Below are positions 21,100 to 49,346 of a stretch of DNA of 52,071 nt, in pieces. Origin of the DNA: a virus (lineage: Duplodnaviria; Caudoviricetes). The position numbers and the translations under genes are program-made. Position 1 is the stretch's first letter; each line of letters opens with the position of its first letter. The notes under the pieces were generated by a model that saw only the letters and a program-made list of their open reading frames with translations, had not been told where the DNA came from and did not search any database. The DNA is taken from positions 1 through 52,071 of the IMG/VR virus record IMGVR_UViG_3300030329_003799, one strand, 5' to 3'.

Positions 21100-21447
21100 A
21101 TGCCAAAACAAAGTTACGAATTAACAGTATTCAATGAAGGAATAATATCTCATCCTGATCCTGAAGATTTAAATATTAATGCAGCTACTTATTCTGTCAA
21201 TTTAGACCCTATTGCTCCTGCAGGTACATTAGGTGGTAAAAAAGAATTTGGAGTAGCAGCTAATTTAACAGAACCACATTCAACAGTAAAATTATTATTA
21301 GACCAAAAAATTGGGACTGGAAATACTATTCCAACATATATTATGGTTTATTATACTCCTCCTTTAGGTGCAAATGGATTCATAGAAACAAATGCTAGGG
21401 TAGGATTTGTAGAAGATTTTTATGATTTTATAGAAGGTGATAATTAG
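21100..21447 (+). CDS. Tail nozzle/stabilisation protein, N-terminal piece
   Basis: MPKQ..E...FNEGI...P.P.DL......S.N.DP...G.L resembles starts of podovirus stabilisation proteins. Confidence 0.5.
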   Translation: MPKQSYELTVFNEGIISHPDPEDLNINAATYSVNLDPIAPAGTLGGKKEFGVAANLTEPHSTVKLLLDQKIGTGNTIPTYIMVYYTPPLGANGFIETNARVGFVEDFYDFIEGDN

Positions 21448-27400: not shown

Positions 27401-28061
27401 TGACCCTCTTCAAATGTATGTTAGAGAAACATATGAAGGAATAGGATGTTTAGGGAAAGAATCAGTTATTGTTTCTGAAACAGGAATGTTTTGGTTTGAT
27501 ACAACAAACGTATATTTATTACCTAGAACTGGAGGAATAGATTATGTTGGAAATAAAATTTTAACAAGTGAACATGGTATAGGATGGCAAGAAATATCTC
27601 CTGATGTTCCTTTTCAGGCTATTTTTGATTCAAAAAGAAAAGCTTTTGGAATGATGCAATTATACAGACCAACACAATTCTTTACTAATGAACAACTTGA
27701 AAATGAAGAAGTGTCAAGATCTGGTCAAAACAGTTTAGATATATTAAATATTTTAAATAAAAAATTATCTATGAAACTTAATACACAATTTCCTAAAGCA
27801 AAAGAAGAGGCATTGAGTACTTATATTTATAACAACAAACAATTGAGTTTGATAAGAAGATTAGAATCTAGTATATTATCATCAAAATCTCCTAAAAGAA
27901 TTAAAGAAGGAAGATTAAATAATTGGTTAAGTCAAAACAATAGACTTATTAAAGAATTAGGCACTTTTTTTACTTATAATTTGCCTCCAAAATTAATAAT
28001 TTTAGCTACAATAGTTATACTTAAACAATCAATAAGAAATAGGACTTATGGCACTCAGTAA
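21447..28061 (+). CDS. Giant tail protein (2204 aa) containing the central nozzle/stabilisation region and an FN3-like segment
   Basis: YTGLQTGVSYFAR (FN3-like); YRLSFTYDGYQESPL, LFRSQPGNF, GIGCLGKESV...GMFWFD propeller-type motifs near the C-terminus. Confidence 0.7.
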   Translation: MSTYGIPDIFSQMLSGGCVTAIRSNTTTTSFYSPGANRWFQFCFKTNSDVNDNSGTWDSDTQGWYLISTRTPEIQDSWEECLIYGVSDVNSGLERKVSFMASQGLRPSLDHALGSIFEHFNVHGDSLLDTWEVDPTGHTPVYVTPNDYNGWNAFAHPVQYHHLIDPEWNEVSLTLHIAHWNPIYIAYSKWSYNIQENSFTQMKPNNFGIDGAATNAFYNLGISNQDSDLIESLADLQTAGAAVGNLLNVHNTIPNHPWHQWVASNNFNYQYGLANPLFPNMIYWDGSDWTGSADHIMGMVHNRYSWVKLFVINQQAKIAYNDAWMEDHTDSDFSRMHHGRAWMFQEPDGSWTPPPYTWYAELEAAHSGENNDFTDGGRRSRDFVSCEVPAMIPSMNPNADMLLNVYADHGSNPSEKYFYWNKTALNVDIGSNFEPSFNDSPMEEAFSYPVEYKGGFGGELQIIPDRDNSRRIAFYFGNLWDINREKMHYIVNWAVLDNNFDPSWKVQNIEVDPVIGFITNSIDFTNGDPSSLPLQPWTKMVVNSWAGTINFLYMRDGGLVYKKKLALKDIPSLGESTNLNEIIGPEEYLFSALNQLPGTTLAWFQSQDLTSGMTGRHLLTGETTDSNSLIVHAFDVDFVPGFGDIVDFNIKELRTNLIIVDFSIHQDDIEHIKSFRFKKSETEILSADFDDGLDGYDEVLIENLDYKEDGELRRYEYKYTGLQTGVSYFARCKPILLSELASTNMSNQIQILLPERSKSVSSLQHTVPMNDANGALYVGTGPDILDKPLFIGRLTHTQFGTNLNSIVIDDSECKSPSGEASITTFTNMVPLNGNLNGQLSSYILGYVTGATTLFLIHKDSGTTLKTNQLGITVECACNCLTISGGVWVFEKASSEVHLITIDPGNINTTSITHSYPVNYEPKWAKYGNVDDNYTDRANMIGDTDLVPDLGSPGDYRTDLYGSDDSTLSIANIVEVGSASDAQLYLLADTSSMEYTAVPAGFTCIIRANTSESALGAPLLEWEDAMLPWNPSIQESEYIGQAYTREEWDGTCPENGIKVEYIGKIWDDETNAFIDNPAGTAIDRPIDSPTSNRPYEICVFSRNHGPHRDAGSRGGMTPIKNTMSIVSNSDKTIGFYAYIEDTYYRHLVTNEWIRNTGSFSFDHIFNCYDAYPDVNSYQNDQATSISGLVYVVIGPSSPGWANYFSWDSNNNLIENEFNGIKEDNYRYSNGDFECLHNTDGQIHKSEYLPSDIGLINNSTRTLSGSVGIGTNILSVKESDSTNTNLIAEEIIDYSKTPWTTGPYANLGNTGYTMFSPMRLANIASTSSPSTGDYIYGRIEIEFSASAHTFWFEGGTNPAMSGYETDTILTKTTISGTYSGPASDKAFSVFCSPLRNTAFHVTGIKTPFLRGDTNLHNKFTIRFWSPKNFDDVDTVANHDTSTTLDAAHCELYEGTYSFADGEMYDYNANAATTTALLPSDSGDLPDPRIAEGQKMNSYWGQAGLTSGDIQFTNTLMVNRHHRVDDSAGTAGVLGAPTGEQVVNTIVKAYDNAKAGGRAHPFITLKAKGTVDATDKRTLVIGFTYPQDENVLCEYDHTGPNATEEKNVGGSIARSVIPQTTDDHAAEGLGPATAEISQYITSTINESPESYKSVNTAVYKDAIVAASSNDDGSTYVDGGMESSSDEEYRLMSRTGTITFGKLLTKQNHQQASAWGSGAEKMAYQSYSLDIGSTLITAPGSLIIVGHQLGTYHEGRCVGWSDKDNQEDACVVGDEDHPNTSFVRTGSAKFEPKKKYFYRLSFTYDGYQESPLGATVWTHDMNLITDTAAQSSGYDSLKITLKLRDVSKRVTHVTLWRKDDTEEALYRSVQQVSLATGWINTGESRMKTITDDGREGPSYEALTGLSSTMLSSSLHYSLATVSNNMMFVGKSTIKETGEHYPNMLFRSQPGNFSIFNWINDYCKLPNIPNAIASMNNVLYAWDDSRMFIIDPLQMYVRETYEGIGCLGKESVIVSETGMFWFDTTNVYLLPRTGGIDYVGNKILTSEHGIGWQEISPDVPFQAIFDSKRKAFGMMQLYRPTQFFTNEQLENEEVSRSGQNSLDILNILNKKLSMKLNTQFPKAKEEALSTYIYNNKQLSLIRRLESSILSSKSPKRIKEGRLNNWLSQNNRLIKELGTFFTYNLPPKLIILATIVILKQSIRNRTYGTQ

Positions 28062-31000
28062 AAAGAAAAAAAGAACTAGCAGACAAGTATCTCATATTAA
28101 TGATATCCAGAATTTTACTGCACAAACAGGAGCAATTCAAGGAGAGATAAGGTTTGGGTTTGACATTCCAGACAATTGGTATCCAGGAGGTATTAAGTTT
28201 CATCATTATACTGAAGAAACTCTTCAATATTATTATGACAGTGCTAGGTCAATGGGTGGCAGTGAAACAGGTCTATTTAATTGGTTTCAACCAAATCAAC
28301 CCTATACTAATGCTGATTTATATTTTATTAATAATGGTATTATGATGACGCTTCCAGCAATGAATATAACATCTGAAGATATTCCAGCTATTGAACTTAC
28401 GCCAGGGCATGATATGGAGGGTTCTTATGGTTGGAATCTTAATTATGAAACTATGCGTTCATTGTTAGAAACAGATGCTTGTGCAGACATATGGCATGGA
28501 GATAGGATGAACAGTGGAGTCTATCAGTTCAGTCGTTCAAGGATAGGAAGTCCTTATCCTATTATATCATGGTTAGGAGGGATATTTGAAGATAATGATA
28601 ATCTTACTGACGTAAATGAACATTATGAACCTTCTGCCGATTTTGGATGGCAATTTGCTCCAGAAGTTACATCACCAATTAACATACATAAATGTGTAAT
28701 AGCTCCTTTAACACCAGAAATTGAAGCATTGGGTGCTCCTATTTGGAATACTGATATAGAAGAAGAGATAGGTTGGACTGAATTTAAAAATCAAGAGTTA
28801 AATGAATTTAATATAGGAGAATTTACAGGTTCAGGAACTAATGGACGATGTCGCCCCTTACAAAGCGAAATATGCACTCCAAGAGAAGCCGCAGAAGCAA
28901 TAGCAGCAGCTAATTGGGATTATAATCCTGGGAATAATGAAGATTTTGAAACTCCTATACTTGATGGCTATGTAGTAATAACTGGTTGTAGGTGGGTTCC
29001 TTCAATAGAAGCTAACAATCCTGATCAAACAGTAGGCAAATATGTTTTTGACCCTTCTGATGCACAATTAGCGGTTCCTAATAATGGATTTACTAATGCT
29101 AATATCGACCCTTGTGGAGAACGTAGAGGAGTTGGCATTGTAAGTTATGTAAGACGTGATGGGCCATTTTATGAAGGCCCTGAAAGAACAGACTATATGA
29201 TGAATCCTTGTTTTAATCCTCAATATGGAACTCCTGAAAGTGTTGGGATAACACATGAATTTAAGCAAGGCGGATTTATAGTAGTAGCACGTCCTTATTC
29301 TCCTACAAACGAAGTAGCACTTGATAGTTCTTTAGATCTCTCAGGAGATGTGCCAGAACCTAGCAATGCAATGTTAACTCGTTTTGCAGATAGAAATTAC
29401 GACTCAACAAATTATTGGTCTACTTTTATTTACCCATCTGATGATGAATGGGCTAATGGCAGAATAGAAAGACTAGCAACACCAGGAGAAGGTACTTGGT
29501 ATTTTATGGTTTTTTATTCAACTGGACATCAGGTGTTTTCTGATGAGCCTCATATTTCAGGTACTACTAGTTGTGCAAATCAACAAAATCAAGGAGATAA
29601 TAATGATATAGCAACTTATGGAGGTTTTGGTCCTTTAAGTTCACAGGCGGAATCTATGGGACAACCCTATCTTAATCCTAACTTCCCAATATCAGAGCCT
29701 TTAAGTGCCGCTTTATCAAATCCATGGGAAGATGTTTTGTTACCTATGCATCCTAATAGAAGTGCAATGGTAAATTTTAGACCAGTATTAACTGGTATAA
29801 ATGATAACTTTGCACCTCAAGATGGTATTTTTAGAAGTGAAGTACAATGTAATCTTCATTTAAAACATTATTTAGAATACTACGAACAAACAAGTTCTGA
29901 CGGAAATCAAACTTGGAATATGACAACACTACTTGGAGGGCATTATGGCGATGCTCAAGATATTAATGATGCACTTGGGACAAATTACGATGGAACTGAA
30001 GGTTCTTTGGCAGTAACAACTATTGAACATTATCCTAAATGGAATGGAGCTAAATTAAGAAGTTTAGGAACTGTTACGTTTGCAGAATGGGCAGAAGGAA
30101 GATCATATGCTTCTTCAACGGCTTCAACTGATACTGATGAGTTTCGTTTTAGTATGTGTACAAGTCCTTTTTTAAGAAGGAAGTGGGATAGTTCTTATCA
30201 AACAGATTGGTTTAGAAGCCATAATCAAGGTCAAACAATGCCAGAGTTGATTAAAGAATTATATGATAATAATCATTTAAATAATTTAACAGAAGCTTTT
30301 TTAAATCAACTACATACTTCAATGGGAATAGCAGCTTATGGTTATGGAGATGGAGGAGACCAAAATTATTACAGTTACATTGCGACAATTTATACTTACT
30401 TAACAAACTTTCAATTTAGTACTGCTTGGGATGGAGGTATTCCAAATTTTAATCCTGAAACAGGAGGTTATCCTAGTGGACAAGCTAGAATATCTCAATA
30501 TTATTTAAGACTAGATAATGAATTAGTATTTACATTTGACAGTCAAAGTGTTCCTGATGATTTTATATGTAGAATAATTAACATAACAGAAAGTGGTAAT
30601 TTTACAGAAGTAGCAGATGAAAACGAAGCTCCTGTTTATAACGATTACTTGAAATCAGATTTAATAGATGCTCCATGGTGGGATTTCTTTGGAACATTGA
30701 CATCAAAAGGTATTACAAATGCAAATAGTTTAGATGCAGCAACATTAAAAAGTTATAAAAGATTAGTGCATCCTATAGATACTACTTTTGAGCAAGATGG
30801 AGATTATGAATATTTAGTTTTATGTGGAAGATACAATCCTAGTGCTCCTGTAATTGAAAGTATCACTCCAACTCCATATCAAGGAGGTGGTTATGGAATG
30901 AGGCTTTTTACTGAAACATTTACAAATCAAAATGAATATTCAACACAAAGTACTGAAGAATCTATTATAATAACTGTTAACAACAAAGGGCCTGATTTTT

Positions 31001-32664
31001 CTTTAAATCCTGTTGAGAGTGCAAATCCAGCAGAAGCCACAGGTCAAAGAAGATTAACTAGTTCTTTTACTTCTGATATCCCGATATTGTATACTAACAA
31101 TACAAGCCAAGGTGATTTAGATTTACTTCAAACAACAGGTCCACATGAAGTAGATAATTTTGAGCATGATCTTTATTCATGGGCAGGTTTAAGCTCAACT
31201 GGAGAAGGATATGAATCTTACGATAATATAGCTGTAGCAGGAATCCTAGACTGGGCTGGGAATTATATATCCTCGTTTTCTACTTGGGATTTTGTTTGGC
31301 CATCAGGAAACGGATCAGTGCAAGGAAATATTAACAGGCTATTTCCTTTTGGGCAAGAATACACAATTGATACTTTAGGGATATTAAATTGGGCTTTTCC
31401 TGGGCCAGATGGTTGGGAATATTCAGCAGCTTCAAGTGGCGAATTTCCTAACCAACAATGTATTATTGCTGGTTTTTCAACTTGGCCTGTTCTTCAAAAG
31501 TACTTATTAGCTAACGGTATGTCTTTTGCTGCAGATAATATTTATACTGCAATGGACAATGGATACTGGTCTTATGACTATGCTTATAATCATACTTCAT
31601 TAGGAGATAGATGGCTTTTAGAAAAACAAGCTGATGATAATTATGAAGTAACTGAAGCAGATATATATATGTCTCAAAAATATAATTCAATAAGTAGAGT
31701 AGGTTTTCATGTAATGGAAGAACATATGCCTACCGCTACAGATATTGATGCATGGGATGGGCAGTATGTAGAAAAAATAATTACATTAGCCCCAGTTAAT
31801 GGAGGTAATATATCTACCTATGTTATAAAAGGAGATCCATGGTTTTTGGGAGTTTTTGACACTTTAAGTGGTGAAATAGATAATCATAGTCAACTTAAAT
31901 TTAAAGTTGATTATGGGTGTCTTGCATATGAAAAAGATTGTGTTTTTCCATTTGGAGGCTGGGAACATCCTTCTCAATTAAACCCAACTAGCCCTGTAAT
32001 TGCACATGTTTGTGTAGGTCGTAAAACTACTAAACCTGAACGTATGTCTTCTCCTGCATATTTTACTCCTTTTTCTGAATCTAATTGTGATATAAATCCA
32101 GAATATACTTATGTAGAACCTGATCCTATTGAAATAGAAGATTTTACTGGAGTTAGTAAAAACATTTATTGGTATAGTCCTTTATCTAAAAGATGGGACA
32201 TAGAAAGTGTTCCTAAAATTAGCGCTACTGATAATAATGAAAATATTTTAAATACATTTATGGGTAAAAAAGGTGAAATATTTATAGGCAAAGATGCAGT
32301 ACTAAGTAATGTTTTTCCATTATTAGAAGCAGAAGCTTCAGATTCTTATAAATCTTTTTCTTGGGTATCAAAGAGGATTAATATGAGAGCAGCCTCTCAA
32401 AAGAAAATGTTTTATAAAGTAAGATTAGTAAAATTAAAATCATCTGGAAAGATTACAGTATTTATAAGAACTGATAATTCTTCTTCTTATACTACATTAG
32501 GAGTTACATCAGATATAAGCACAGATTTTAAAATACCAAAATCTTTAAGAAGAGGTAGATGGATTCAAGTTATGGTTGTTAGCGGTGGAGATGAAAGTGA
32601 TAACTTATACCCTGCTACTATATCTTCTTTAACAATAATATGGAGACAGAAGCCAATTAAATGA
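28048..32664 (+). CDS. Giant tail protein (1538 aa) ending in a nozzle-type C-terminal domain
   Basis: Acidic aromatic-rich body; terminal YWYS..SKRWD...WVSKRI......KMFYKV...GRWIQV...ISSLTIIWR. Confidence 0.7.
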   Translation: MALSKKKKRTSRQVSHINDIQNFTAQTGAIQGEIRFGFDIPDNWYPGGIKFHHYTEETLQYYYDSARSMGGSETGLFNWFQPNQPYTNADLYFINNGIMMTLPAMNITSEDIPAIELTPGHDMEGSYGWNLNYETMRSLLETDACADIWHGDRMNSGVYQFSRSRIGSPYPIISWLGGIFEDNDNLTDVNEHYEPSADFGWQFAPEVTSPINIHKCVIAPLTPEIEALGAPIWNTDIEEEIGWTEFKNQELNEFNIGEFTGSGTNGRCRPLQSEICTPREAAEAIAAANWDYNPGNNEDFETPILDGYVVITGCRWVPSIEANNPDQTVGKYVFDPSDAQLAVPNNGFTNANIDPCGERRGVGIVSYVRRDGPFYEGPERTDYMMNPCFNPQYGTPESVGITHEFKQGGFIVVARPYSPTNEVALDSSLDLSGDVPEPSNAMLTRFADRNYDSTNYWSTFIYPSDDEWANGRIERLATPGEGTWYFMVFYSTGHQVFSDEPHISGTTSCANQQNQGDNNDIATYGGFGPLSSQAESMGQPYLNPNFPISEPLSAALSNPWEDVLLPMHPNRSAMVNFRPVLTGINDNFAPQDGIFRSEVQCNLHLKHYLEYYEQTSSDGNQTWNMTTLLGGHYGDAQDINDALGTNYDGTEGSLAVTTIEHYPKWNGAKLRSLGTVTFAEWAEGRSYASSTASTDTDEFRFSMCTSPFLRRKWDSSYQTDWFRSHNQGQTMPELIKELYDNNHLNNLTEAFLNQLHTSMGIAAYGYGDGGDQNYYSYIATIYTYLTNFQFSTAWDGGIPNFNPETGGYPSGQARISQYYLRLDNELVFTFDSQSVPDDFICRIINITESGNFTEVADENEAPVYNDYLKSDLIDAPWWDFFGTLTSKGITNANSLDAATLKSYKRLVHPIDTTFEQDGDYEYLVLCGRYNPSAPVIESITPTPYQGGGYGMRLFTETFTNQNEYSTQSTEESIIITVNNKGPDFSLNPVESANPAEATGQRRLTSSFTSDIPILYTNNTSQGDLDLLQTTGPHEVDNFEHDLYSWAGLSSTGEGYESYDNIAVAGILDWAGNYISSFSTWDFVWPSGNGSVQGNINRLFPFGQEYTIDTLGILNWAFPGPDGWEYSAASSGEFPNQQCIIAGFSTWPVLQKYLLANGMSFAADNIYTAMDNGYWSYDYAYNHTSLGDRWLLEKQADDNYEVTEADIYMSQKYNSISRVGFHVMEEHMPTATDIDAWDGQYVEKIITLAPVNGGNISTYVIKGDPWFLGVFDTLSGEIDNHSQLKFKVDYGCLAYEKDCVFPFGGWEHPSQLNPTSPVIAHVCVGRKTTKPERMSSPAYFTPFSESNCDINPEYTYVEPDPIEIEDFTGVSKNIYWYSPLSKRWDIESVPKISATDNNENILNTFMGKKGEIFIGKDAVLSNVFPLLEAEASDSYKSFSWVSKRINMRAASQKKMFYKVRLVKLKSSGKITVFIRTDNSSSYTTLGVTSDISTDFKIPKSLRRGRWIQVMVVSGGDESDNLYPATISSLTIIWRQKPIK

Positions 32665-37348: not shown

Positions 37349-40300
37349 ATGGGCTTCATCTCGGGGGAAAAAGACTATTTTGATGAGTCTGCTTTTAAAC
37401 CTTCTTGGTCAGAACAAGACACACAAAGAAGAGTTCAGGCGTATTATGTCGCCCCACATACATTTCCACAAGCACAATTAGACGTATTGCATTCCCATGC
37501 AAATCATTATGGTATACAAATAGATGAAAATAGAGTTACTGCACATGATGATGAAATTAAATTTAAAAGATTATTACAGAAACTTGGCAGTGGTTTCTTA
37601 TCAGGCTTTACTACATTCGAAGTAGGCGATGAACCCCGAAATGATGCAGAAGCCATTGCCAACTCTTTAGGTCATTTAGCTGGATTTGTTGGCTTTATAC
37701 CTACTGCTCCATTAAAAGCATTAAATGCTACTAAAATGGTTAGCGCTGCTCAAGCTCTTAGAGGAAAATCTGTTCCAATGCTTGCAGCATCTCAATTACA
37801 GAAAGCTGTAACTCCTGTTAGCAAAAAGATATTAGACAATGCTATGAACATGAGATCTAAAGCTGTAGCAGATGCTGCTAATTTCTTAAATAAAGATGTG
37901 CCTTCACATATGATTGAAGGAGCTTTTCATTTAGGAACTGCATCAGCTGTAGGAGCATGGCAACAAGGTATAGATGGGATGATTCAAGCTGGAGTACATG
38001 GTGGTGTTATGGGTGGAGCATTTAGAGGGATAGCTAATATGATCAATAAAGGTGGAGCTAGAACTTTAGTAAGAACTGTTGAAAAAGACCATTTAGGTAG
38101 ACCTAAGCCTGCTAAACAAGTATTAACATTAGACCAAAAACAAGATAGAGCATTAAGAGGACTGGCTGGTTCGTTATTTGATGGGCTACCTTCTACATTA
38201 AGAGGCGATACTACTGCTCAACAGGTGTATCATTATTTACTAGGTGCTTATTTTGGAGCACAAGAAACTACTGCTGTTGAAATGGGCAGAAATAAATTCC
38301 TACAAAAAATGGAAAAATCTAACTCAGAAACAATAAGAAATGCTCAAAAAGTAGGCATGGAAAAAGGTTATAAAGGTGAAAGACTTCAGAAGTTTATAAT
38401 GAAAGAAACTTCAAATGATCTTAATTATGTGCCAGAGCTCACAAAAGGATGGGGCAAGTTATCAGAAAGAGTACAAGAATCTGTTAAAGAAGAAGCTGCA
38501 AATCTATGGGGATACAAATCAGATAGTAGAACCGCAGGTTATAAAATGCTTGAGGATATATTAGGCGAAGATGATGCTAAATCATTTATAGACGATTTAG
38601 AAATGCCTGTTGAAGAAGGTTTTACTGATACAGGCAAATTAAAACATGGAGCTAGATTAGTAATTCCTATGAAAGGCCAAGAGCATAAATATGTAATGGG
38701 GTCTGGTGGAGCTATCGGTTCTGATGCTAAATGGGCAGAAATTGGCCTTAGATATGGAGTTGACAACGTTGTGCATTATTCTTTTAAAGGACATAAAACA
38801 GCACCTAAATTAAAAGGAGATGTATATAAACTAAATGATAAAGCATTAGCTGAGGGCAATATAGCTGTAGAAAAGGCTAGTAAAAGACTAGGTAAAACAA
38901 CAGGTAGAAAAAAATATACTCTAGATTTACTTAGAAGAAATTATCATCAAGTAGTACATTCTGATGGAGTGTTTGCTATAGGCAGTATTGTTAGAAAAGG
39001 TAAAAGAGGTAAAAAAGATCCTCCTATTAACGAAGTAAGAGGTGGTACAGGTTGGGCTATAGCAATGGCTAAAGATATGCAAGGTAGAGAAATACATGTA
39101 TGGGATACCGTTGATAAAGGATGGCATAAATGGAATAGGTCTAAAAGAATTTGGGAAAAAGAAAAAGCTCCTAAATTAACTCCTGACTTTGCAGGTATTG
39201 GCAGTAGAGGAGTTCTAAAAGGAAAGAATTATATAATGCCAAAAGGTGCTGAAGAAGCCATAGAAGATGTGTATAAAGCGACTTTTGGAGAGCCAATAGA
39301 GAAATCTAAGGCCGAAAAAGCTAAAATTAAGGCAGAAAAAGAAAAAATAGTATCAGCAGTAGGGGGAGAAAAAAACGACGCTGAAAAGCACAAAATTATA
39401 AAAGAAGAGAATTTAGGAGAACCTAGTTTACAAGATATATTAGCAAGTGGAAGTGTAGAAGGGCCTGATGTTAAACCACTTAAAAAGTCTAAAAAAGGAG
39501 AAGATGTTAGCGTTAAAGGTCAACTTGATGACTCAAAGCAAACATCAGCTACTCCAGTATCAAACAGAACAGTTAGTTATGTTAAAAGAGAATTAGCAGG
39601 TATTCACTTAGATGATACTGCTAAGATACATAAGATGGCTAAAAAACTTGATAAGATTTTAGATAAAGCCTCTAGTTCTAAATTAAAAGATGGCTTGAGT
39701 TATAAAATAGAAGATTCTATGGATATAGTCAAAAAAGGAATGGATAGAGAATGGGGTATTACTTTAAAAGATAGTAAACTACTTGAAATGAAACAGCAAT
39801 TATTTTTACGTAATGCTGGAGTCCAGGTTCCTCACTTTACTGTCACAAACGGGAAGATATCTGATAAGCCTATAGCTTCTAAAAATTTAGCTCAAAATGA
39901 TAAAAGACAAAGAGCTCCTGAAATGTGGATTTCTCATGTGTGGCAAAGTCATGGTAAGTCGGGCCATGGCTATGCCATACTTGATCATTTTGTTGAAGGT
40001 CAAAATGGTAGATTTAGAGAATATTCTTTTGGTCAACAAAAAGAAAGATTAAAAGATAAAACTAAGAGTGATGACGCATGGAATAAAACATTAGCTGATA
40101 TATATGAAAAAATGTTTACTAATCATAATATGTATGCATATGGAGGTCGTGGTGATGCAGAAAGAATGTATTTTGTAAAAGTACACCCAAAAGTTCCAGT
40201 TAGAAAAATTCACGTTGATAAAATGTTAGAAGAAATACCAGAATTTAAATTAGATAATATGCCTACTTGGGTTAAGAAGTATGCTACTAAAAGCTTACTT

Positions 40301-43300
40301 ACAGCACAAGGTAAAACACTTAAACCTAAAATGGAAATGCGATATAAAAAAATGATTATATCAAATGCTTTATATGAAGCTGAGATGAATGGCTTTACTC
40401 CCGACGTAGCAGGTATTAAAAAATTACTAGCAATGAAAGATCGTGTTGGTATGAAAAAAGGTGTAATTGATTGGAATAAAAGACAGCAAATATGGTTCAC
40501 TAATGGCTATTCAGCTGATCGTGCTTTCTTTTTAAAGAACAAAAAAAGATTTAAACTGGGTGAATTAAAAGACAGTCAATTTAAATACATGTTGTTTGAA
40601 GACGCTTCTGAAAAAGGATTAAATGCTAAATCCTTAGCTAGAAAATATACTGAAGCAACTGATGGAGCTATATTAGCAGAAGAAGGTTTTGTTGATGCAT
40701 TAAATGAAAGTTTTGGTATGCCTGAATCTGGTCAAAATAAATCTTTTATAGTATCTCCCCATTCAGAACATGGTGCTTTATTAGGTAAATTTATGTTCCA
40801 TAAAGTGACACCTGAAGCTTCTAAATGGATGAGAAAACAAGGTATACACATGTTAATACCTCGTTCAGCTGCAAAACAATCAGGTAATAGAGACTATTTT
40901 GATTTATTCTCTGCTTCTAAAGCTTATAAAGAACCTAGATTTACTATAGGTGGTAAAAAAGCAAATCCTCAAGAAACAGATATGATATATGGTATGGATA
41001 TAGCACATATTAAAGGTTCTTTATCTGAAAAAGATACTGAACACCAATTACAAAATCAAAGACTTCCAAAGCAAATGCTGACAAATTTAACAGCTTATAA
41101 TTTTGCTACTAAAGGTGATCCTAAACTAGAAGCTAAATACCAAAAGTCTTTAGATAGGATGTTTGAAGAAATAATAGGAGAAAATTTCAGAGGTTCTAAA
41201 CCTTTTAACTCTAAATTACAAGATTTAATGGATAATTATGGTGATTTAAAACCTAAAGAAAGAGCTAAGAAAGTTGAGTTTCTTCTTAACAATATAGATA
41301 AAATAGGTGTTGACCAATTATTAAAAGCAATAAAAACTCCATATGCTCAAGAGTTTACTACTAAAGCGTATAGAAAGATAGTCAAGAAAACTGATGAAAT
41401 CATTATGGATAAAATTAATGATGGAGAATTGACTCAAAAAGAAGGGGCTGAATATTATCAGGAGTCTGCTAGTTTCAAAACATTAATGGATAGACTATTA
41501 GCATTAGAAGGGCAAATGGGGGGAGATACTACTCCTATATGGTTCCATAAATTTGTTAGAGATTTTAGAATGCAAGCTATGAGAAATTTTGTAGTATATC
41601 AAGTAACTAGGCCATCAATGCCTAATAGTATATCAGGTAGAATGAGACCATATGATCCATGGCTACGTGCAGATAAGAACATGAAAAGATTAGATAAAGA
41701 TGATAGTATATTCTTTTTAGATGATATGTACAGACATATGAAAATACAAGTTCCTAAAGATGTGTTTGTTGGAGAAAAAGCTCCTAGAACATTAGGTAAG
41801 TTGTGGGATAAATATCAAGAAATGAAAGATAATAAACAATTAGTTGGAAAGAAATTTGAAGATTTTCTACATGCTGTTGTTGTTCGTGTTCCTATGGACT
41901 CTTTATCAGGCGCACATGATTTAAAATTCGCAGGATTTACTGGTATTAATGGTAAAGGTATATTATTACATCCAAGAACTATGCAAGCATTAGGTGGTGC
42001 TGATTTAGATGGTGATAAAGCTTTTGCTTTCTTTGGTATGCCTAAAAGTTATAGAGATATGTATGGTAAAAACAAATATGAATTTTCTAGTACTGGTGAT
42101 GCAAAAGGAATAATCAAAGATAATAAAGAAGATTTTAGAGATATTCTTACTCGTAATAATCCAGAAGAAATGAAAGTATTTCAAGAACAAAGTGCAGTTT
42201 GGGACCCTATGTTAAGAGAAGATATATCTATGAGAGCTGCAGATGGACGTGCTAGATTAGGTCCAGCTGTTATAAATAGACAAGCAGCTATTGCAATGCA
42301 CGCATCACTTTCTGGTTCTAAACAGTCTGAAACAGTACCTTTTACTATGACTATAAATAAAAAGAAACATACTTTTGATATAGAAATATCTCCTAAGACA
42401 GATGCAAAAGAATTAGCTTATGCTAGGGAGCTTATGAGAGCTAGCATAGCATTTCCTTCTGACCCCTTAGATGAAGCTGGTCTTAAAAGTAAAGCTCATT
42501 TTCAATGGAAAGTATTTGAGTCTTTATTTAATGTAAAAATTCCTAAAGATATGGAAAAGGCATTAGGTAAAAAGAAAATGAAAGATTTTTTAAAAGGTAC
42601 AGATAAAAAAGATCCTGGTATTTACAAACTTGCTAGTAAATCATTAATGGGGACTTTAAAAAGAATGAATTCTGCATACTATGGTAGAAACTGGGATACA
42701 GGAAGAAGATGGTATTTCCCTGAGATACAAGAGATGGCAGAACCTATTTATACAGATTTTTCTCCAGAAATGATTAATACTATGATGCCTAAAATGGTAC
42801 AAGAATTAGGTAAAGTAGATTGGAGTGATAATGTATTTGCAAGAATAGATAAAAAAGGATTAAAAGATTTATATGGGCAATGGGACATAAAAAGAAAAGA
42901 TATAGATTGGCTTAAAAAACAATTAGGAAGAACGTCATTCAAGGTCAAGTATACTCCAGTTGTTAAGAACACTATTAAAGAACAATTATATCTTCCCGAG
43001 AAGAGGAACGCGGCTGTTGAATCTGTAGCAGCTTTTAGAAGAGCAGTCGCGAATACTCATTTTCCCATGAGAAAAGGATTTGAAAAAGATTTAAAAGAAG
43101 AATCATATAGAAGAGATGTCATAGAAGAATTATATACATTAAGCCAAGATGCTATAGTTAGAGATATGACTGATATTACTACCTTTGAAATGTTAAGAGA
43201 TTATATTAAAGCTAGTAAGATACCAAGAAGAAATGTAGTACATTTATCTAAATTTGCACAACAAGCTAGAAGACAATACACATTAGATTTTAAATCTCGT

Positions 43301-46300
43301 AAAAAAATACAAGAAGCTGATATGTTTGAAGAAAAAGAAACATCATTCGAAGATCAGCTATTAACAGATGAGTATATTAAAAACTTTAAATTAGGTAAAG
43401 GTAAGGATGGAAAAGGAACTAATGTTTTGAAACGTCCTTTAACTCCTGATGAGCAAGACATATTAGATATAATGTTAATAGGTTCTGCTGATAGATTTAA
43501 ATTAGATGAAATTAATAAATACGAATCTGAAAATTGGGGTAATTTAAGTAAACACGAAAAGAATATTATAGCTCAAGAAAGATATAAAGCTGCTGGAACA
43601 TCTTTAAATAGAGCAGGTTTTAACAGTGAGTCTGTTAATGATAAAATTATATTAGATTTAATGAACAGATATAATGAAAAGTTAATTACAACTTATGAGC
43701 CTCCTAAGAAATTAGCAGAAGCTACTAAAGAAAATAATAAAGCTGCTGATGAACCATTAAAGATGAAGGTTTCTGATAGTGAAGGTAAAGAAGCAGAAGT
43801 GGAAATAGATACCAATCATTATAGTGGTTTTGAGAAATTAAACAGAGGTGAAATAAAAGACGCAGAATTGAGAGATTTAGTTGATATGTTAGCTGATAAT
43901 ATTAATCATTATAAATCTAGATTTGGTGACAATTCAAAAGATATAGCTGAAAACATTAATTTACTTACAAGAGGATTAGTTGGTAAAGATTTAGCAGCAA
44001 TGAATAAAGAAGATTATCGTGTGATGAATAGATACTTTAATGATTTACGTTCAGGTACCTGGTATATGAGAAACATAGTGCCTAAGCTAAAACAAAAAGG
44101 AATCATTCCTAAAAGAGCTCATATGCAGTTTCCTTTAACTTCCAATAAAGAAAGAATGATGGAAGATATAGTATTATCGTACGAACAAGGGTACTTTCAA
44201 AACTATGATGGTACTGGTAAAATAGGTAAAATGGCTAAACCTACACATTACTTAGAAAGAATGCAATTCTTTACGGGAACATCTGTTGATTTAGCAACAA
44301 GGTATGATGATTTGCAAAAACAAGAACTTAGAGATGAACTACTTAAAGAAACAGGTTATGAATCTATTCCTGAAGGTGAAAGATTATATGAAATAGCAGT
44401 TGCATTAAGAGAGCAGCCTATGATCAATGAAATTGCTAGTAAGAAAAGAGGAGATGCTTATGATAGTGTTTTAAATTATAGAATAAAACAATATCAAGAT
44501 AGTATAACAGATTCTTTAACTAAAAACAAATGGGATGATTTAAAAGACAGGAAATTTAAAGTATCTTTAGGAGCTAAAGATAAGAATATGACTGGTCAGC
44601 AAATCGTTGATAATATAAATAAAGTTATAACTAAAAGAAATGAAAAGATACACACAGAATGGATTTCTAAAAATAAAAAGAATTTAGCTAAATATCAAAT
44701 AGGACATCATGACGAGGGTGGTTTAATTCCTAAATATGATATTGTAAAATTCACTAAACACATATCTAATCTATATAAAAAAGGTGAACCTGTAGATATG
44801 AACGAATTTGGCCTTGATGGTCTTAGAGAAATCTCTAGAAGTATGATGCTTCAATCTCCTGATACTAATAGCAAGTTAGCTAAAGCTATATTAAAACAAG
44901 ACGTAAGTCAAACTGGGCAAATGGATTTTAGTGTTTACTTCCCTCATGCTCATATGGACAATAAAGCTGCATTACAATCTCTTAAAAGAGGTTTAGATTT
45001 TATAGAAAAATCAGAATTAACTCCTACTGAAAAAGCCGCTGAAAAGAAAAAAATGTTAATAAGAACTAAAACATTAACAGGGGATTGGTTACCTCATGAT
45101 ATGATAGAATATCAAGCATTTGATGGTGCTTTAAGAGAAATAGCTAAAGGTAAAGATGGTGATTGGATGAAATGGTTTAACAGTAATCCTAGAACAGGTA
45201 ATATGATGTCTCGTAATAATCATATAGGAGGTTGGGCTAAAGATCCTGGTGTTTATGAAATATATCAAAACAATCTTATTAAAACTTATTATAGACAACT
45301 AGCTCAAATAATGAACAGAGCTACTATTGAAGAGTTTGAAATTAATAATCTTGGATTTAAAGGTAAAGAACATGTAGAAGCATGGAAGAATTTCTATAGA
45401 TTATACGCACAAGATGCTATGGGGTTCCCTAATAATATTCCTCGACATTTTTTAAATAAAGATAGTGGAATGAATATAGCAGGTACTCCTTATGCTTGGT
45501 GGGCAGATAGTAATGTTAAACGTATTGTAAATAATGTAAGAAAAAAATTAGGTATTAAAGAAGATTTAAGACTTCCTGAAGAATTAAGAGGAGTTGATGT
45601 AAGTCACATAAGACATTGGTCAAATGTAGAAGCCAGATATCAAATGGCAACGTTGTTAGCGCATCCTAAATCAGCAATAGCCAATATATATGGTGGTACA
45701 TTACATACAGTACAATCAGTAGGTTGGAGAAATTGGAGAAATTCTCGTAATGTAGAGTATCTAAGGACTAATCTTCCTGGAGAAGCTAAGAATTGGCTAG
45801 ATAAAGGCGATATGACTAAATGGGCAGTTAAACATGGTGTTGTTCCAGATTTTATATTATATGAAGCAGGATTAAATCCACAATTTAGAACTGGTAGATG
45901 GAAGGCATTTGTAGATGATGCTATGTCTTTATTTAATAAAGATCCTCATGTTAAAGACCATACTCTTATAAGTTTAGCTAAAAAGCATAAAATTACAGAG
46001 AATGCATTTCATAAAGCAGCTTGGTTCATGCGAGAACCTGAGCGCGCATTACGTCGTGATGCTTTTATATCTCACTATTTACAAGCTAGAGAGAATATTG
46101 GTAATGCAGAAATGCCTTTAGATCATCCGTTTCTTATAGAACAAGCTAAGAAAGGTGTTAAAGCAACACAATTCTTATATTCAGCTCCATATAGACCTCC
46201 TTTTTCACGTTCTGCATTGGGAAAAGTTATGACACGTTTCCAATTGTGGGCATGGAATGCTGTTAGGTTTAGGAAAGATGTAATCGCTGAAGCTGAGAAA

Positions 46301-46774
46301 CATGGATGGCGTCCTGGTACTCCTGAATTTGAAAGATTTAAGAGAACTATGACTACTGATATGTTTGTGTTAGGTATGTCCAATATCTTTGCATACTCTA
46401 TATTTGAAAATGCTTTACCTGCTCCTTGGAATTGGTTCCAAGATACAGCAGATTGGTTATTTGGAGATGAGAAAGCAAGAGACAGAGCATTCTTCGGGGC
46501 TTATCCAACTCAAATTGCACCACTCCAAGTGATTACACCTCCTATAGCAAGGATTGGCCCCGCTACTTTTAGCGCAATGGTTAATAATGATTATTCTAGA
46601 CTGTCTGAATATTATATATGGACTATGTTTCCATTTGGAAGGTTAGCTAGAGATGTTAAAAATAGCATAGAGAATCCTATCAGAACAATAGAAAACTTTA
46701 CAGGGATACCTTATGGTCAATTCCATAGAGAAATGAAGTCAATTCAAAAGGAAGATGATGAGCCAACAGAATAG
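37349..46774 (+). CDS. Giant (3141 aa) probable virion-packaged two-barrel RNA polymerase polyprotein with SLOG-like domain
   Basis: Barrel 1: ATDGAIL (D1105)...GKFMF...IPRSAAK. Barrel 2: VVVRVP...LGGADLDGDKAF (D1552). SLOG-like GSGGAIGSD...RNYHQV..SDGVFAIG...GGTGWAI...FAGIGSR. Sits in the ejection cassette. Confidence 0.85.
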   Translation: MGFISGEKDYFDESAFKPSWSEQDTQRRVQAYYVAPHTFPQAQLDVLHSHANHYGIQIDENRVTAHDDEIKFKRLLQKLGSGFLSGFTTFEVGDEPRNDAEAIANSLGHLAGFVGFIPTAPLKALNATKMVSAAQALRGKSVPMLAASQLQKAVTPVSKKILDNAMNMRSKAVADAANFLNKDVPSHMIEGAFHLGTASAVGAWQQGIDGMIQAGVHGGVMGGAFRGIANMINKGGARTLVRTVEKDHLGRPKPAKQVLTLDQKQDRALRGLAGSLFDGLPSTLRGDTTAQQVYHYLLGAYFGAQETTAVEMGRNKFLQKMEKSNSETIRNAQKVGMEKGYKGERLQKFIMKETSNDLNYVPELTKGWGKLSERVQESVKEEAANLWGYKSDSRTAGYKMLEDILGEDDAKSFIDDLEMPVEEGFTDTGKLKHGARLVIPMKGQEHKYVMGSGGAIGSDAKWAEIGLRYGVDNVVHYSFKGHKTAPKLKGDVYKLNDKALAEGNIAVEKASKRLGKTTGRKKYTLDLLRRNYHQVVHSDGVFAIGSIVRKGKRGKKDPPINEVRGGTGWAIAMAKDMQGREIHVWDTVDKGWHKWNRSKRIWEKEKAPKLTPDFAGIGSRGVLKGKNYIMPKGAEEAIEDVYKATFGEPIEKSKAEKAKIKAEKEKIVSAVGGEKNDAEKHKIIKEENLGEPSLQDILASGSVEGPDVKPLKKSKKGEDVSVKGQLDDSKQTSATPVSNRTVSYVKRELAGIHLDDTAKIHKMAKKLDKILDKASSSKLKDGLSYKIEDSMDIVKKGMDREWGITLKDSKLLEMKQQLFLRNAGVQVPHFTVTNGKISDKPIASKNLAQNDKRQRAPEMWISHVWQSHGKSGHGYAILDHFVEGQNGRFREYSFGQQKERLKDKTKSDDAWNKTLADIYEKMFTNHNMYAYGGRGDAERMYFVKVHPKVPVRKIHVDKMLEEIPEFKLDNMPTWVKKYATKSLLTAQGKTLKPKMEMRYKKMIISNALYEAEMNGFTPDVAGIKKLLAMKDRVGMKKGVIDWNKRQQIWFTNGYSADRAFFLKNKKRFKLGELKDSQFKYMLFEDASEKGLNAKSLARKYTEATDGAILAEEGFVDALNESFGMPESGQNKSFIVSPHSEHGALLGKFMFHKVTPEASKWMRKQGIHMLIPRSAAKQSGNRDYFDLFSASKAYKEPRFTIGGKKANPQETDMIYGMDIAHIKGSLSEKDTEHQLQNQRLPKQMLTNLTAYNFATKGDPKLEAKYQKSLDRMFEEIIGENFRGSKPFNSKLQDLMDNYGDLKPKERAKKVEFLLNNIDKIGVDQLLKAIKTPYAQEFTTKAYRKIVKKTDEIIMDKINDGELTQKEGAEYYQESASFKTLMDRLLALEGQMGGDTTPIWFHKFVRDFRMQAMRNFVVYQVTRPSMPNSISGRMRPYDPWLRADKNMKRLDKDDSIFFLDDMYRHMKIQVPKDVFVGEKAPRTLGKLWDKYQEMKDNKQLVGKKFEDFLHAVVVRVPMDSLSGAHDLKFAGFTGINGKGILLHPRTMQALGGADLDGDKAFAFFGMPKSYRDMYGKNKYEFSSTGDAKGIIKDNKEDFRDILTRNNPEEMKVFQEQSAVWDPMLREDISMRAADGRARLGPAVINRQAAIAMHASLSGSKQSETVPFTMTINKKKHTFDIEISPKTDAKELAYARELMRASIAFPSDPLDEAGLKSKAHFQWKVFESLFNVKIPKDMEKALGKKKMKDFLKGTDKKDPGIYKLASKSLMGTLKRMNSAYYGRNWDTGRRWYFPEIQEMAEPIYTDFSPEMINTMMPKMVQELGKVDWSDNVFARIDKKGLKDLYGQWDIKRKDIDWLKKQLGRTSFKVKYTPVVKNTIKEQLYLPEKRNAAVESVAAFRRAVANTHFPMRKGFEKDLKEESYRRDVIEELYTLSQDAIVRDMTDITTFEMLRDYIKASKIPRRNVVHLSKFAQQARRQYTLDFKSRKKIQEADMFEEKETSFEDQLLTDEYIKNFKLGKGKDGKGTNVLKRPLTPDEQDILDIMLIGSADRFKLDEINKYESENWGNLSKHEKNIIAQERYKAAGTSLNRAGFNSESVNDKIILDLMNRYNEKLITTYEPPKKLAEATKENNKAADEPLKMKVSDSEGKEAEVEIDTNHYSGFEKLNRGEIKDAELRDLVDMLADNINHYKSRFGDNSKDIAENINLLTRGLVGKDLAAMNKEDYRVMNRYFNDLRSGTWYMRNIVPKLKQKGIIPKRAHMQFPLTSNKERMMEDIVLSYEQGYFQNYDGTGKIGKMAKPTHYLERMQFFTGTSVDLATRYDDLQKQELRDELLKETGYESIPEGERLYEIAVALREQPMINEIASKKRGDAYDSVLNYRIKQYQDSITDSLTKNKWDDLKDRKFKVSLGAKDKNMTGQQIVDNINKVITKRNEKIHTEWISKNKKNLAKYQIGHHDEGGLIPKYDIVKFTKHISNLYKKGEPVDMNEFGLDGLREISRSMMLQSPDTNSKLAKAILKQDVSQTGQMDFSVYFPHAHMDNKAALQSLKRGLDFIEKSELTPTEKAAEKKKMLIRTKTLTGDWLPHDMIEYQAFDGALREIAKGKDGDWMKWFNSNPRTGNMMSRNNHIGGWAKDPGVYEIYQNNLIKTYYRQLAQIMNRATIEEFEINNLGFKGKEHVEAWKNFYRLYAQDAMGFPNNIPRHFLNKDSGMNIAGTPYAWWADSNVKRIVNNVRKKLGIKEDLRLPEELRGVDVSHIRHWSNVEARYQMATLLAHPKSAIANIYGGTLHTVQSVGWRNWRNSRNVEYLRTNLPGEAKNWLDKGDMTKWAVKHGVVPDFILYEAGLNPQFRTGRWKAFVDDAMSLFNKDPHVKDHTLISLAKKHKITENAFHKAAWFMREPERALRRDAFISHYLQARENIGNAEMPLDHPFLIEQAKKGVKATQFLYSAPYRPPFSRSALGKVMTRFQLWAWNAVRFRKDVIAEAEKHGWRPGTPEFERFKRTMTTDMFVLGMSNIFAYSIFENALPAPWNWFQDTADWLFGDEKARDRAFFGAYPTQIAPLQVITPPIARIGPATFSAMVNNDYSRLSEYYIWTMFPFGRLARDVKNSIENPIRTIENFTGIPYGQFHREMKSIQKEDDEPTE

Positions 46775-47971: not shown

Positions 47972-48320
47972 AGCCCAGGTCCGCTGATTCATCATCAGGG
48001 TTCGGCTGGCTTTCGGAAATTTCATCTTCACTAAGTGTCTCCTCATTAGCCTTACGAACTAAAATGCATAAATTTGTTCCGATAATAATATCGTTATCGA
48101 ATGTTTCTATATCACTTCCAGGTTCAATATCTTTGAACCCCTTCTGATCAGCTATAGATAATATAACATCACCAAGGGTAAACTTCCAAGCAATATCTTC
48201 TATTGAATCCTCTCTAGGAGATGGTTCATTGGTAATATTTTCAATATATTTTTTGGCTTCTTTATATCTATTCTCCATCTGGGTCCTCCGTAAATAAAGG
48301 AACAGGCGTTTTAGTGGCAT
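47958..48320 (-). CDS. Acidic hypothetical protein
   Basis: ORF track; GGAGG SD suggests the internal MENRY start. Confidence 0.6.
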   Translation of the reverse strand: MPLKRLFLYLRRTQMENRYKEAKKYIENITNEPSPREDSIEDIAWKFTLGDVILSIADQKGFKDIEPGSDIETFDNDIIIGTNLCILVRKANEETLSEDEISESQPNPDDESADLGYENS

Positions 48321-48654
48321 AGTAATCTCTAGGATTTCTTTCAGACCATTCTTTTCCTTCCTGTATCATTCCCCATAGCATTGTTAAATAAACTATAGCA
48401 TCTATTATTCTGCCTTGTATAGGCTCTCTTTGTGTCTCGTGTCCTTTGACATAATTACCTATACCATCAATATGCTTTAATAAATAGACCATTAAAACTT
48501 GCATTCTATCTAAATTAGTTTGTTTTGCTACTCTTTTAAAGTTGGCATAAACGTCCATACTATCACCAGCATATTCCTTTTGACCTTTTTCATGAGTGTC
48601 GATACATTTAGTAAATATCTCATCCATGATTCTGATTTGTTTTTCAAGAGTCAT
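48268..48654 (-). CDS. All-alpha NTP-pyrophosphohydrolase-like / nucleotide-modification-associated protein
   Basis: K...Y...NF.....KH......E....I.D...Y pattern of MazG/dUTPase-like phage families. Confidence 0.55.
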   Translation of the reverse strand: MTLEKQIRIMDEIFTKCIDTHEKGQKEYAGDSMDVYANFKRVAKQTNLDRMQVLMVYLLKHIDGIGNYVKGHETQREPIQGRIIDAIVYLTMLWGMIQEGKEWSERNPRDYYATKTPVPLFTEDPDGE

Positions 48655-48760
48655 TTTCTTTCTCCAGTTGTTTTCTTAATTCATCATCTCTCTCTTTGGC
48701 ACGTTTCAATGCTCCCCAATCAGGCTCTGTTTTACCTTTAACTAAAGGTTTCCTTTTTTT

Positions 48761-48925
48761 TCAAGGAGGTTTGGGAAGTGTGTCCATTTTCTTTTCCATA
48801 CCCTCTATCTTTCTCTCTAAATTCCTTCGAAATTCGTATTCGCTTATGCTTAATTTTGTTTGTAGAATCTTCTTTACCTGATCTATTTCTTCCTTCAGGA
48901 TTTTTAGTGTCAATTTCTTTGACAT
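48761..48925 (-). CDS. Small coiled-coil protein (54 aa; 93 aa if UGA is read through)
   Basis: AGGAGG SD; MSKKLTLKILKEEIDQVKKILQ...TLPKPP-UGA; not in ORF track. Confidence 0.6.
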   Translation of the reverse strand: MSKKLTLKILKEEIDQVKKILQTKLSISEYEFRRNLERKIEGMEKKMDTLPKPP

Positions 48926-48959
48926 TTTTTCCTCCTATACTAGGGTTATTTCTTGCATC

Positions 48960-49052
48960 TCATCCATCGTTAAAGCCACAATAAGGGCATCCAAATTGAC
49001 ACGCTAGTGCGGAAAGAAATTTTCCACACTGCATGCATTGAGTCATCTTCAT
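48960..49052 (-). CDS. Cys-rich zinc-finger micro-protein ending at a possible Sec UGA
   Basis: MKMTQCMQCGKFLSALACQFGCPYCGFNDG-UGA-D; GGAG SD, ATGA overlap with upstream gene; not in ORF track. Confidence 0.7.
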   Translation of the reverse strand: MKMTQCMQCGKFLSALACQFGCPYCGFNDG

Positions 49053-49255
49053 ATAGTTAACTCCAGATGTTGAGCAATCCACCAGCATCTTCCATTGTCT
49101 GATGCAATTGCGATCGCTTTCTTTTTTCGCTCTGGAGGTGTCATATCCCTATATTCAGGTATAAACTTAGGTAGTTTTTCTGCTTTTCTAGCTATATCTT
49201 TCCTAACGTCTTCTTGCATAGGAAAAGGTTGTAATACGCATTTATCATACGCCAT
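49049..49255 (-). CDS. Hypothetical protein
   Basis: 68 aa, GAGG SD. Confidence 0.65.
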   Translation of the reverse strand: MAYDKCVLQPFPMQEDVRKDIARKAEKLPKFIPEYRDMTPPERKKKAIAIASDNGRCWWIAQHLELTI

Positions 49256-49346
49256 TTTATTTTACCTCTATTTAATTTAAAGTTTGTACAAGACGGTAGC
49301 CTCCTCCACAGAATCTACCGCCTTATACCCGACGAGTTATCACGAC

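Follow-up and report, generated by a model that had tools for sequence, protein, structure and literature searches.

A candidate programmed recoding site at an invariant UGA of a zinc-ribbon micro-gene in marine podophages

Programmed read-through of stop codons is textbook knowledge for RNA phages and for eukaryotic viruses, but to our knowledge it is hardly documented for genes of double-stranded DNA (dsDNA) phages. Here we describe a candidate for such a site in a viral genome of 52,071 bases (IMG/VR record IMGVR_UViG_3300030329_003799, the whole of which was analysed and is referred to as the window). It concerns a 30-codon zinc-ribbon open reading frame (ORF), termed zn30 (48963–49052, minus strand), which ends at a UGA codon behind which the frame stays open. 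An initial annotation of this DNA had proposed that the UGA encodes selenocysteine (Sec).

The closest described system is the A1 protein of the phage Qbeta (Leviviricetes), where the UGA of the coat gene is read as Trp about 1 in 15 times according to the cited account (PMC8067240). As proposed here, zn30 would resemble A1 in that low-frequency decoding of a phage UGA produces a minor isoform with the same start and an extended C-terminus. It differs from A1 in belonging to a dsDNA podophage and in being a micro-protein of the early/replication module and not a coat protein, and its read-through is proposed from sequence. Furthermore, the zn30 extension runs out of frame through part of the next gene, its sequence is unconserved, and a conserved hairpin follows the stop.

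Bacterial selenoprotein genes share with zn30 an invariant in-frame UGA, a loop that carries G followed by G or U at 16–19 nucleotides (nt) after the UGA, and an ORF that continues. The zn30 family differs from them by lacking Cys homologues, the bulged U, a match to the Rfam families of the Sec insertion sequence (SECIS) and a conserved downstream peptide, and its hairpin comprises only 4–6 base pairs (bp), mostly above the energy limit set for bacterial SECIS elements (−7.5 kcal/mol). A small marine zinc-ribbon protein with an in-frame TGA is predicted for the FmdB family, for which the ocean metagenome survey gives 2 predicted Sec forms against 807 Cys homologues (PMC2398784). In these FmdB forms, as described there, the Sec lies inside a CxxU knuckle and the Cys forms dominate, whereas the UGA of zn30 lies outside the knuckles.

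The zn30 micro-gene and its invariant UGA

zn30 carries Cys codons at positions 6, 9, 18, 22 and 25 with the spacing C-x2-C-x8-C-x3-C-x2-C, followed by five codons, the TGA (codon 31; 48960–48962, minus strand, read 48962..48960) and a GAT codon for Asp. A direct DNA search of cultured phages with positions 48600–49300 gave no match, and searches of viral contigs with the upstream 68-amino-acid (aa) ORF (up68), the read-through product, the neighbouring gene p128 and the helicase yielded no relatives. Protein searches with the 42-aa ORF or the 104-aa read-through product as single queries found nothing, and tblastn of the read-through product against phages returned chance matches only (E of at least 4). 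With the Gp157-like neighbour as bait we obtained 20 related viral contigs, six of which contain a zn30 homologue at 69–72% identity. A degenerate DNA pattern covering codons 18–30, and thus excluding codon 31, then matched 15 stretches in viral contigs, and a looser version matched 30 in metagenome contigs; none of 185,579 species genomes contained a match. After exclusion of three further viral loci identical to others, the pooled set comprised 43 loci (the window, 12 viral and 30 metagenomic), corresponding to 31 distinct sequences over positions −90 to +120.

The Cys pattern is kept throughout these 31 sequences. Invariant in the family are C6, C9, C22 and C25, forming two CxxC knuckles, together with an additional Cys18. 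The variable columns of zn30 are distributed as 7/6/19 over codon positions 1/2/3 in 17 main-group sequences, which is a coding signature. Structure prediction with AlphaFold 2 (AF2) yielded β-strands in a β-hairpin with a predicted local distance difference test (pLDDT) score of 75–78 for the ribbon core. zn30 is a real, conserved micro-gene of 30–39 codons encoding a predicted single C4 zinc ribbon with one extra invariant Cys. It resembles other small C4 ribbons (compared were Zn_ribbon_3, UPF0547, DUF1610/HVO_2753-like proteins, RNA polymerase subunit P and archaeal zinc-ribbon translation proteins) in having two CxxC(G) knuckles with a separation of about 12 residues, and differs from them by its much shorter length and by Cys18. 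All matches to these families stayed below significance, so that membership in a named family is not established: Zn_ribbon_3 and UPF0547 scored 15.7 and 15.1 bits against Pfam cut-offs of 27 and 29, a profile search of the PDB returned HVO_2753-like/DUF1610 and other solved zinc ribbons at E-values of 0.36–8.7 over residues 5–26, and no FmdB-type Pfam match was obtained at E ≤ 0.1. One 32-aa homologue (P0027) is named 'ribosomal protein L40E' by one source, probably an automatic mis-annotation caused by the zinc-ribbon motif.

The initial annotation had placed the UGA at the expected sixth zinc-ligand Cys of the finger. This assignment is not supported, as the two knuckles would already complete a C4 ribbon; moreover, the alignments to solved ribbons stop at residues 26–28 and align no Cys with position 31. 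Its observations on the letters themselves are all present, namely the ORF, the Cys pattern, the UGA-Asp, the hairpin with its AGGAGG overlap and the frame open to a TAA.

All 15 viral-contig matches and all 30 metagenome matches carry TGA at codon 31, as do all 31 distinct sequences. At the same loci the stops of neighbouring orthologues vary: p128 ends in TAA 13, TGA 6 and TAG 5 times, the Gp157-like gene in TAA 18, TAG 7 and TGA 5 times, the HNH gene in TAA 20 and TGA 9 times, and p107 in TAA 18 and TAG 4 times. Within the window, TGA terminates nine of the 52 heuristic ORFs. The invariance of the zn30 stop against this varied background indicates that its TGA is not neutral. No homologue ended here in TAA or TAG, an outcome that leaves the idea of a recoded UGA standing.

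An alternative genetic code (table 4 or 25, with TGA as Trp or Gly) was considered and rejected: the ORFs of 3141, 2204 and 1538 aa read without interruption under table 11, and up68, the HNH gene and the helicase all terminate in TGA, at ATGA-type overlaps or ahead of short extensions. Reading through these other early-gene TGAs adds only 4–18 codons. As TGA is a normal stop elsewhere in this phage and the extensions there are short, the signal is a local one.

Protein databases hold the family in two forms. Searching 1.84 billion representatives with a profile and 5.8 billion clusters with an alignment gave 25 distinct family proteins in all, after three long repeat proteins had been set aside as unrelated. 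Ten are short forms (32–39 aa) ending before the UGA site and 15 are extended, with Trp at the site in 14, Leu in one and Cys in none. The single Leu form stems from a 682-base contig and also lacks Cys22. The Trp forms (among P0004–P0006 and P0010–P0019) appear to stem from gene calling with table 4 on short contigs rich in AT. In the three cases where the codon behind the Trp was checked in the DNA (L050, L036 and L006) it is TGA, and in P0013 two more Trp residues coincide with stop codons in the L036 DNA. Gene callers thus either truncate zn30 at 30–39 aa or apply the wrong code and leave a W at the TGA, an artefact that may misdirect the search for homologues with Trp or Cys.

Selection for an open frame behind the UGA

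Behind the UGA, the zn30 frame of the window continues for 73 open codons (48738–48959, minus strand) up to a TAA (48740..48738). Along most of this length it overlaps, out of frame, the downstream gene dn54 (54 aa; 48761–48925, minus strand; ATG at 48925), which lies in the +1 frame. In the early genes of the window, +2 off-frame stops occur 302 times in 2356 codons (0.128 per codon), and every early gene contains between 2 and 71 of them except dn54, which has none in 54 codons. Shuffling the codon order of dn54 left the frame open in only 79 of 20,000 trials (P 0.004), and resampling synonymous codons left it open at a frequency of 0.0015.

The same property is found in relatives with other genes behind zn30. 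The downstream gene is dn54 or dn51 in the window group, a 55-aa gene in the main group, a p128 homologue in the L028 group, a 139-aa gene in L056 and a 65-aa gene in L040/L049. In most lineages the zn30 frame is open for 46–73 codons, passing out of frame through four downstream genes that are unrelated to one another. Codon-order shuffles gave P values of 0.008–0.036 for the L028 group, 0.016 for L056 and 0.001–0.10 for the main group, and Fisher's method over five lineages yielded a combined p of 1.4e-5.

The gene p128 (phrog_6802; 48268–48654, minus strand, in the window) provides a natural control, since it directly follows zn30 in the L028 lineage and lies elsewhere in other genomes. In the five distinct p128 homologues directly behind zn30 the first +2-frame stop is found at codon 31–36, whereas in the nineteen distinct homologues located elsewhere, including that of the window, it is found at codon 2–13 (Mann-Whitney p 3e-4). 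Likewise, the distance from the UGA to the downstream ATG takes seven different lengths (37, 40, 43, 46, 49, 52 and 67), all of them 1 mod 3. The exception is L040/L049 with a distance of 57, and there the zn30 frame is closed by a TAG after 14 codons.

These data show that the frame behind the UGA is kept open by selection against stops. What is selected is not a particular peptide: in 17 main-group sequences the downstream gene shows a coding signature in its own frame (variable columns 22/15/32, aa identity 0.70) and the zn30 frame shows none, indicating selection on the absence of stops. The tails are hydrophilic, with a net charge of −5 to +9 across relatives and +9 in the window, and are predicted to be disordered (AF2 pLDDT 45–55). 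Independent initiation in this frame was rejected as a source of the constraint, as in the window the frame contains no ATG, GTG or TTG until near its end. The stop avoidance, the p128 contrast and the 1 mod 3 spacing together appear explicable only by ribosomes translating the zn30 frame past the UGA. The claim of the initial annotation that this UGA is no ordinary stop is supported by its invariance, by the frame kept open behind it and by a conserved hairpin at a SECIS-like distance.

The downstream hairpin and the decoding of the UGA

In the window this hairpin consists of CCUA-GUA-UAGG (48934–48944, minus strand; 4 bp), with its loop beginning 19 nt after the UGA, and its 3′ arm overlaps the AGGAGG Shine-Dalgarno (SD) sequence of the next gene (48931–48936, minus strand), both as first annotated. 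A hairpin of 4–6 bp is present in every lineage, starting 12–15 nt after the UGA, and all loops contain GU. The arms differ: they are CCUCC/GGAGG in the main group, CCUC/GAGG in L061, UCUC/GAGA in the L028 group and L056, GCUC/GAGC in L040 and CCUA/UAGG in the window group. When 26 distinct sequences are aligned, 80.1% of the cells of the six pairs show pairing, compared to 71.3% after shuffling (0 of 500 shuffles attain the observed value) and to 42–51% with slid partners; the covariation score was 0.270 versus 0.134, and in three pairs both partners change. In the window, a covariance model built on the UGA and the hairpin detected only this site, at 41.9 bits with the next match at 13.5, and hence no second copy.

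Taken by itself, the window hairpin is weak, as the initial annotation had already remarked, with an energy of −0.8 kcal/mol in isolation and −2.3 kcal/mol in context. Single-sequence folds are no more stable than shuffles (z −1.6 to +0.9), RNAalifold predicted no consensus structure, and the stem contains a mismatch in two variants. Within the window, loop, stem and spacing of this kind also occur at 12 of 51 further gene stops and at 34 of 150 randomly chosen positions. The hairpin of the window alone is thus not beyond chance, and it is its conservation in relatives that gives it weight. As an additional element, in the main group (e.g. L021, 12369–12434) the sequence GCUGA, made up of the last two bases of the Gly-30 codon and the UGA, can pair with UCGGC immediately before the ATG of the downstream gene, enclosing the small hairpin. 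Variants with a GGU codon keep this pairing through G-U, and it is absent in the window.

Based on these features we propose that the zn30 UGA is probably a programmed recoding site yielding a short and an extended isoform. Most ribosomes would stop at the UGA and release the bare zinc ribbon. A fraction would decode it and go on in frame for 14–73 codons, across the ribosome-binding site and the first 30–60 codons of the downstream gene, giving a second isoform composed of the zinc ribbon and a hydrophilic, disordered tail. Among the possible decoders we tentatively favour near-cognate read-through of a programmed leaky UGA by a host tRNA, with Trp being inserted as in Qbeta A1, as the most likely one. 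The hairpin could contribute to this signal, or it could be a regulatory element travelling with the gene. An unconserved tail without codon-position signature would also fit a minor read-through isoform. A suppressor tRNA or a tRNA-Sec supplied by the phage was rejected as decoder, as none was found over the cut-off in the window or in five relatives; one related phage (L065) holds a weak tRNA-like match (G001:C1:36873-36927) of 24.5 bits, below the 29-bit cut-off.

If this proposal is correct, a widespread marine phage group would make two micro-protein isoforms by means of one UGA and a mini-hairpin, over-printing the start of whichever gene comes next. It would be a compact case in which selection acts solely on the absence of stops in the overlapping frame.

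Several observations weigh against near-cognate read-through. We infer the ribosomal read-through, its rate, the tRNA used, the role of the tail and the production of the protein from sequence evolution only. Shorter extensions exist in three lineages (14 codons in L040/L049, 29 in L042/L050 and 40 in L061), the codon-order shuffle is not significant for L042/L050 (P 0.14–0.16), and the main-group sequences are interrelated, so that the P values of single sequences cannot be treated as independent. The tail shows no conservation at the protein level, with an aa identity of 0.48 and variable columns of 31/22/15 lacking a coding signature, and read-through leaves the function of such a tail unexplained. 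None of the 31 distinct DNA sequences has TGG at codon 31. We know of no bacterial case in which a downstream hairpin stimulates near-cognate read-through. Finally, a hairpin 12–15 nt past the stop lies outside the ribosome during decoding, a geometry that would better suit a tethered factor such as SelB.

This last point leads to the Sec reading put forward in the initial annotation. Here, host SelB with Sec-tRNA(Sec) would bind the hairpin as a minimal SECIS and decode UGA-31 as Sec. The product would be a phage-encoded selenoprotein consisting of a zinc ribbon and a Sec, the latter perhaps paired with the invariant Cys18. In favour of this reading, specifically UGA is invariant and the stem covaries. 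The bacterial SECIS (bSECIS) model, as given in the cited source, describes a loop of 3–9 nt, an upper stem of 4–16 bp, a G within the first two loop positions (mostly GG or GU), 16–37 nt from UGA to loop and a minimum free energy of at most −7.5 kcal/mol (PMC13188914). In our implementation, loop and stem, loop G and spacing (16–19 nt) agree with this model at 29 of the 31 distinct sites, including the window. The energy agrees at only seven of the 31, so that the window conforms to the model in three of its four features and departs from it in stability. Counted on the homologue spacers, the GU of the loop lies at nt 21–26 from the U of the UGA, a position resembling that of the E. coli element, for which an upper stem-loop at nt 15–31 with G23/U24 is described (PMC8659212). 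Marine communities are moreover described as rich in predicted selenoproteins (PMC2398784).

The sequence comparison speaks against Sec in particular. Cys homologues exist for nearly all selenoproteins, as stated in the cited study (PMC13188914), whereas Cys codons are found at the site in none of the 31 distinct DNA sequences and Cys in none of the 15 extended database proteins. The initial annotation had itself named a lack of Cys-containing homologues as an argument against its idea, and none is present in these 31 sequences or among all 25 family proteins. The mismatched stems at two sites, the missing bulged U, the lack of an RNAalifold consensus and the frequency of similar hairpins at other stops and random places all detract from a SECIS, and the peptide behind the site is not conserved. 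No Rfam SECIS family matched in the window or in L021 up to an E-value of 10, which is weak evidence since these families are gene-specific. A search of the phage genome revealed no tRNA, tRNA-Sec, selA, selB or selD in the window, and five relatives of 93–100% completeness contain no tRNA over the cut-off and no tRNA-Sec, selA or selB. The listed literature matches on phage Sec and SECIS show no natural phage selenoprotein. We therefore retain the features of a recoding site from the initial annotation and regard Sec insertion by the host machinery as a doubtful, minority reading. That zn30 represents the first phage-encoded selenoprotein family, with obligate Sec without Cys forms, a minimal SECIS of 11–17 nt and host SelB as decoder, is correspondingly questionable. 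Were it true, the unusually small SECIS would link the expression of phage genes to the selenium metabolism of the host, and selenium supply or SelB capacity would set the ratio of short to extended isoform and thereby the translation of the overlapped downstream gene.

A plain stop, with UGA and hairpin serving as RNA signals that couple or regulate the next gene and the open frame as a by-product, appears unlikely. Variants of this explanation include anti-SD/SD-like pairing, a terminating ribosome opening the hairpin, and mRNA processing. It draws on the zinc ribbon being complete ahead of the UGA, on a tail without coding signature, on TGA being a normal stop elsewhere in the phage, and on every downstream gene having its own SD and ATG. 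Moreover, the 3′ half of the spacer is conserved above coding DNA and carries a functional SD. In the main group the arms of the hairpin (CCUCC/GGAGG) are anti-SD/SD-like, and in the window they coincide in part with the real SD, but those of L040 (GCUC/GAGC) are not SD-like. The GCUGA/UCGGC pairing could constrain the letters of the stop codon in the main group, but it is absent from the window and from the L028 group. A plain stop does not account for the avoidance of stops in the zn30 frame over four downstream genes unrelated to each other, and leaves unexplained both the p128 contrast (5 of 5 versus 0 of 19) and the seven spacer lengths that are all 1 mod 3.

Other recoding at the Gly-UGA is highly improbable, be it a bypass as in T4 gene 60, which combines a Gly codon, a stop and nearby structure, a frameshift in the +1 or −1 direction, or slippage out of the downstream gene into the zn30 frame at an A-rich run: a GGC/GGU codon does recur 15 codons downstream in much of the main group and some downstream genes start with A AAA AAA or A AAA AAG, yet take-off and landing codons mismatch in L028 (GGC versus GGA), a landing would resume in the same frame 0 anyway, in the window and many relatives a TAA or TAG interrupts the +1 frame, in the window the −1 frame ends within 6 codons, and the A-rich run is not conserved (AAG AAG, AGA AAA and CAG AAA variants).

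The phage genome and the surroundings of zn30

The window constitutes a whole virus record with an estimated completeness of 94% and a G+C content of about 34%. A plus-strand block from 5.4 to 47.7 kb contains a P22-like portal, an SU10-like capsid protein and, as part of the structural module, three giant ORFs of 2204 aa (21447–28061), 1538 aa (28048–32664) and 3141 aa (37349–46774), which jointly account for about 40% of the genome and have no Pfam match at E ≤ 1e-5. A minus-strand block at the right end encodes a DnaB-like helicase, a Gp157/Gam-like protein, an HNH endonuclease and a row of small genes. Compared to cultured phages of many hosts, the terminase, capsid and portal of the window are below 30% identity throughout, and an ESM Atlas look-up of a lysin-like protein indicated no host. 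The sequencing runs containing this DNA are labelled marine metagenomes and are DNA runs, with no RNA run among those listed; contigs from these runs are identical to the window over 48650–49150, without variants. The carrier of zn30 is a lineage of uncultured marine podophages of about 50 kb.

Immediately upstream of zn30 lies up68 (49049–49255, minus strand), whose TGA overlaps the zn30 ATG (ATGA) and which had no family match in protein-family searches. On the other side, dn54 ends in a TGA (48763..48761), after which its frame stays open for 38 codons up to a TGA overlapping the p128 ATG (ATGA at 48654). The sole start in between (region 48644–48763, minus strand) is a TTG 2 nt after GGGGAG. 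In L042/L050 the 51-aa counterpart likewise terminates in TGA, with 30 open codons behind it. The dn54 TGA may represent a second read-through candidate or mark an unannotated mini-gene; it has no SECIS-like hairpin, the loop being AAA.

Gene order around zn30 differs by lineage (L001–L007, L028 and L040 compared to 48268–49255 of the window). In the main group the up68 homologue is found downstream of zn30, in the L028 group p128 is the next gene after zn30, and the gene that precedes zn30 in the main group sits downstream of it in L040. In all these arrangements, zn30, its UGA and the hairpin form a cassette that moves as one unit between lineages.

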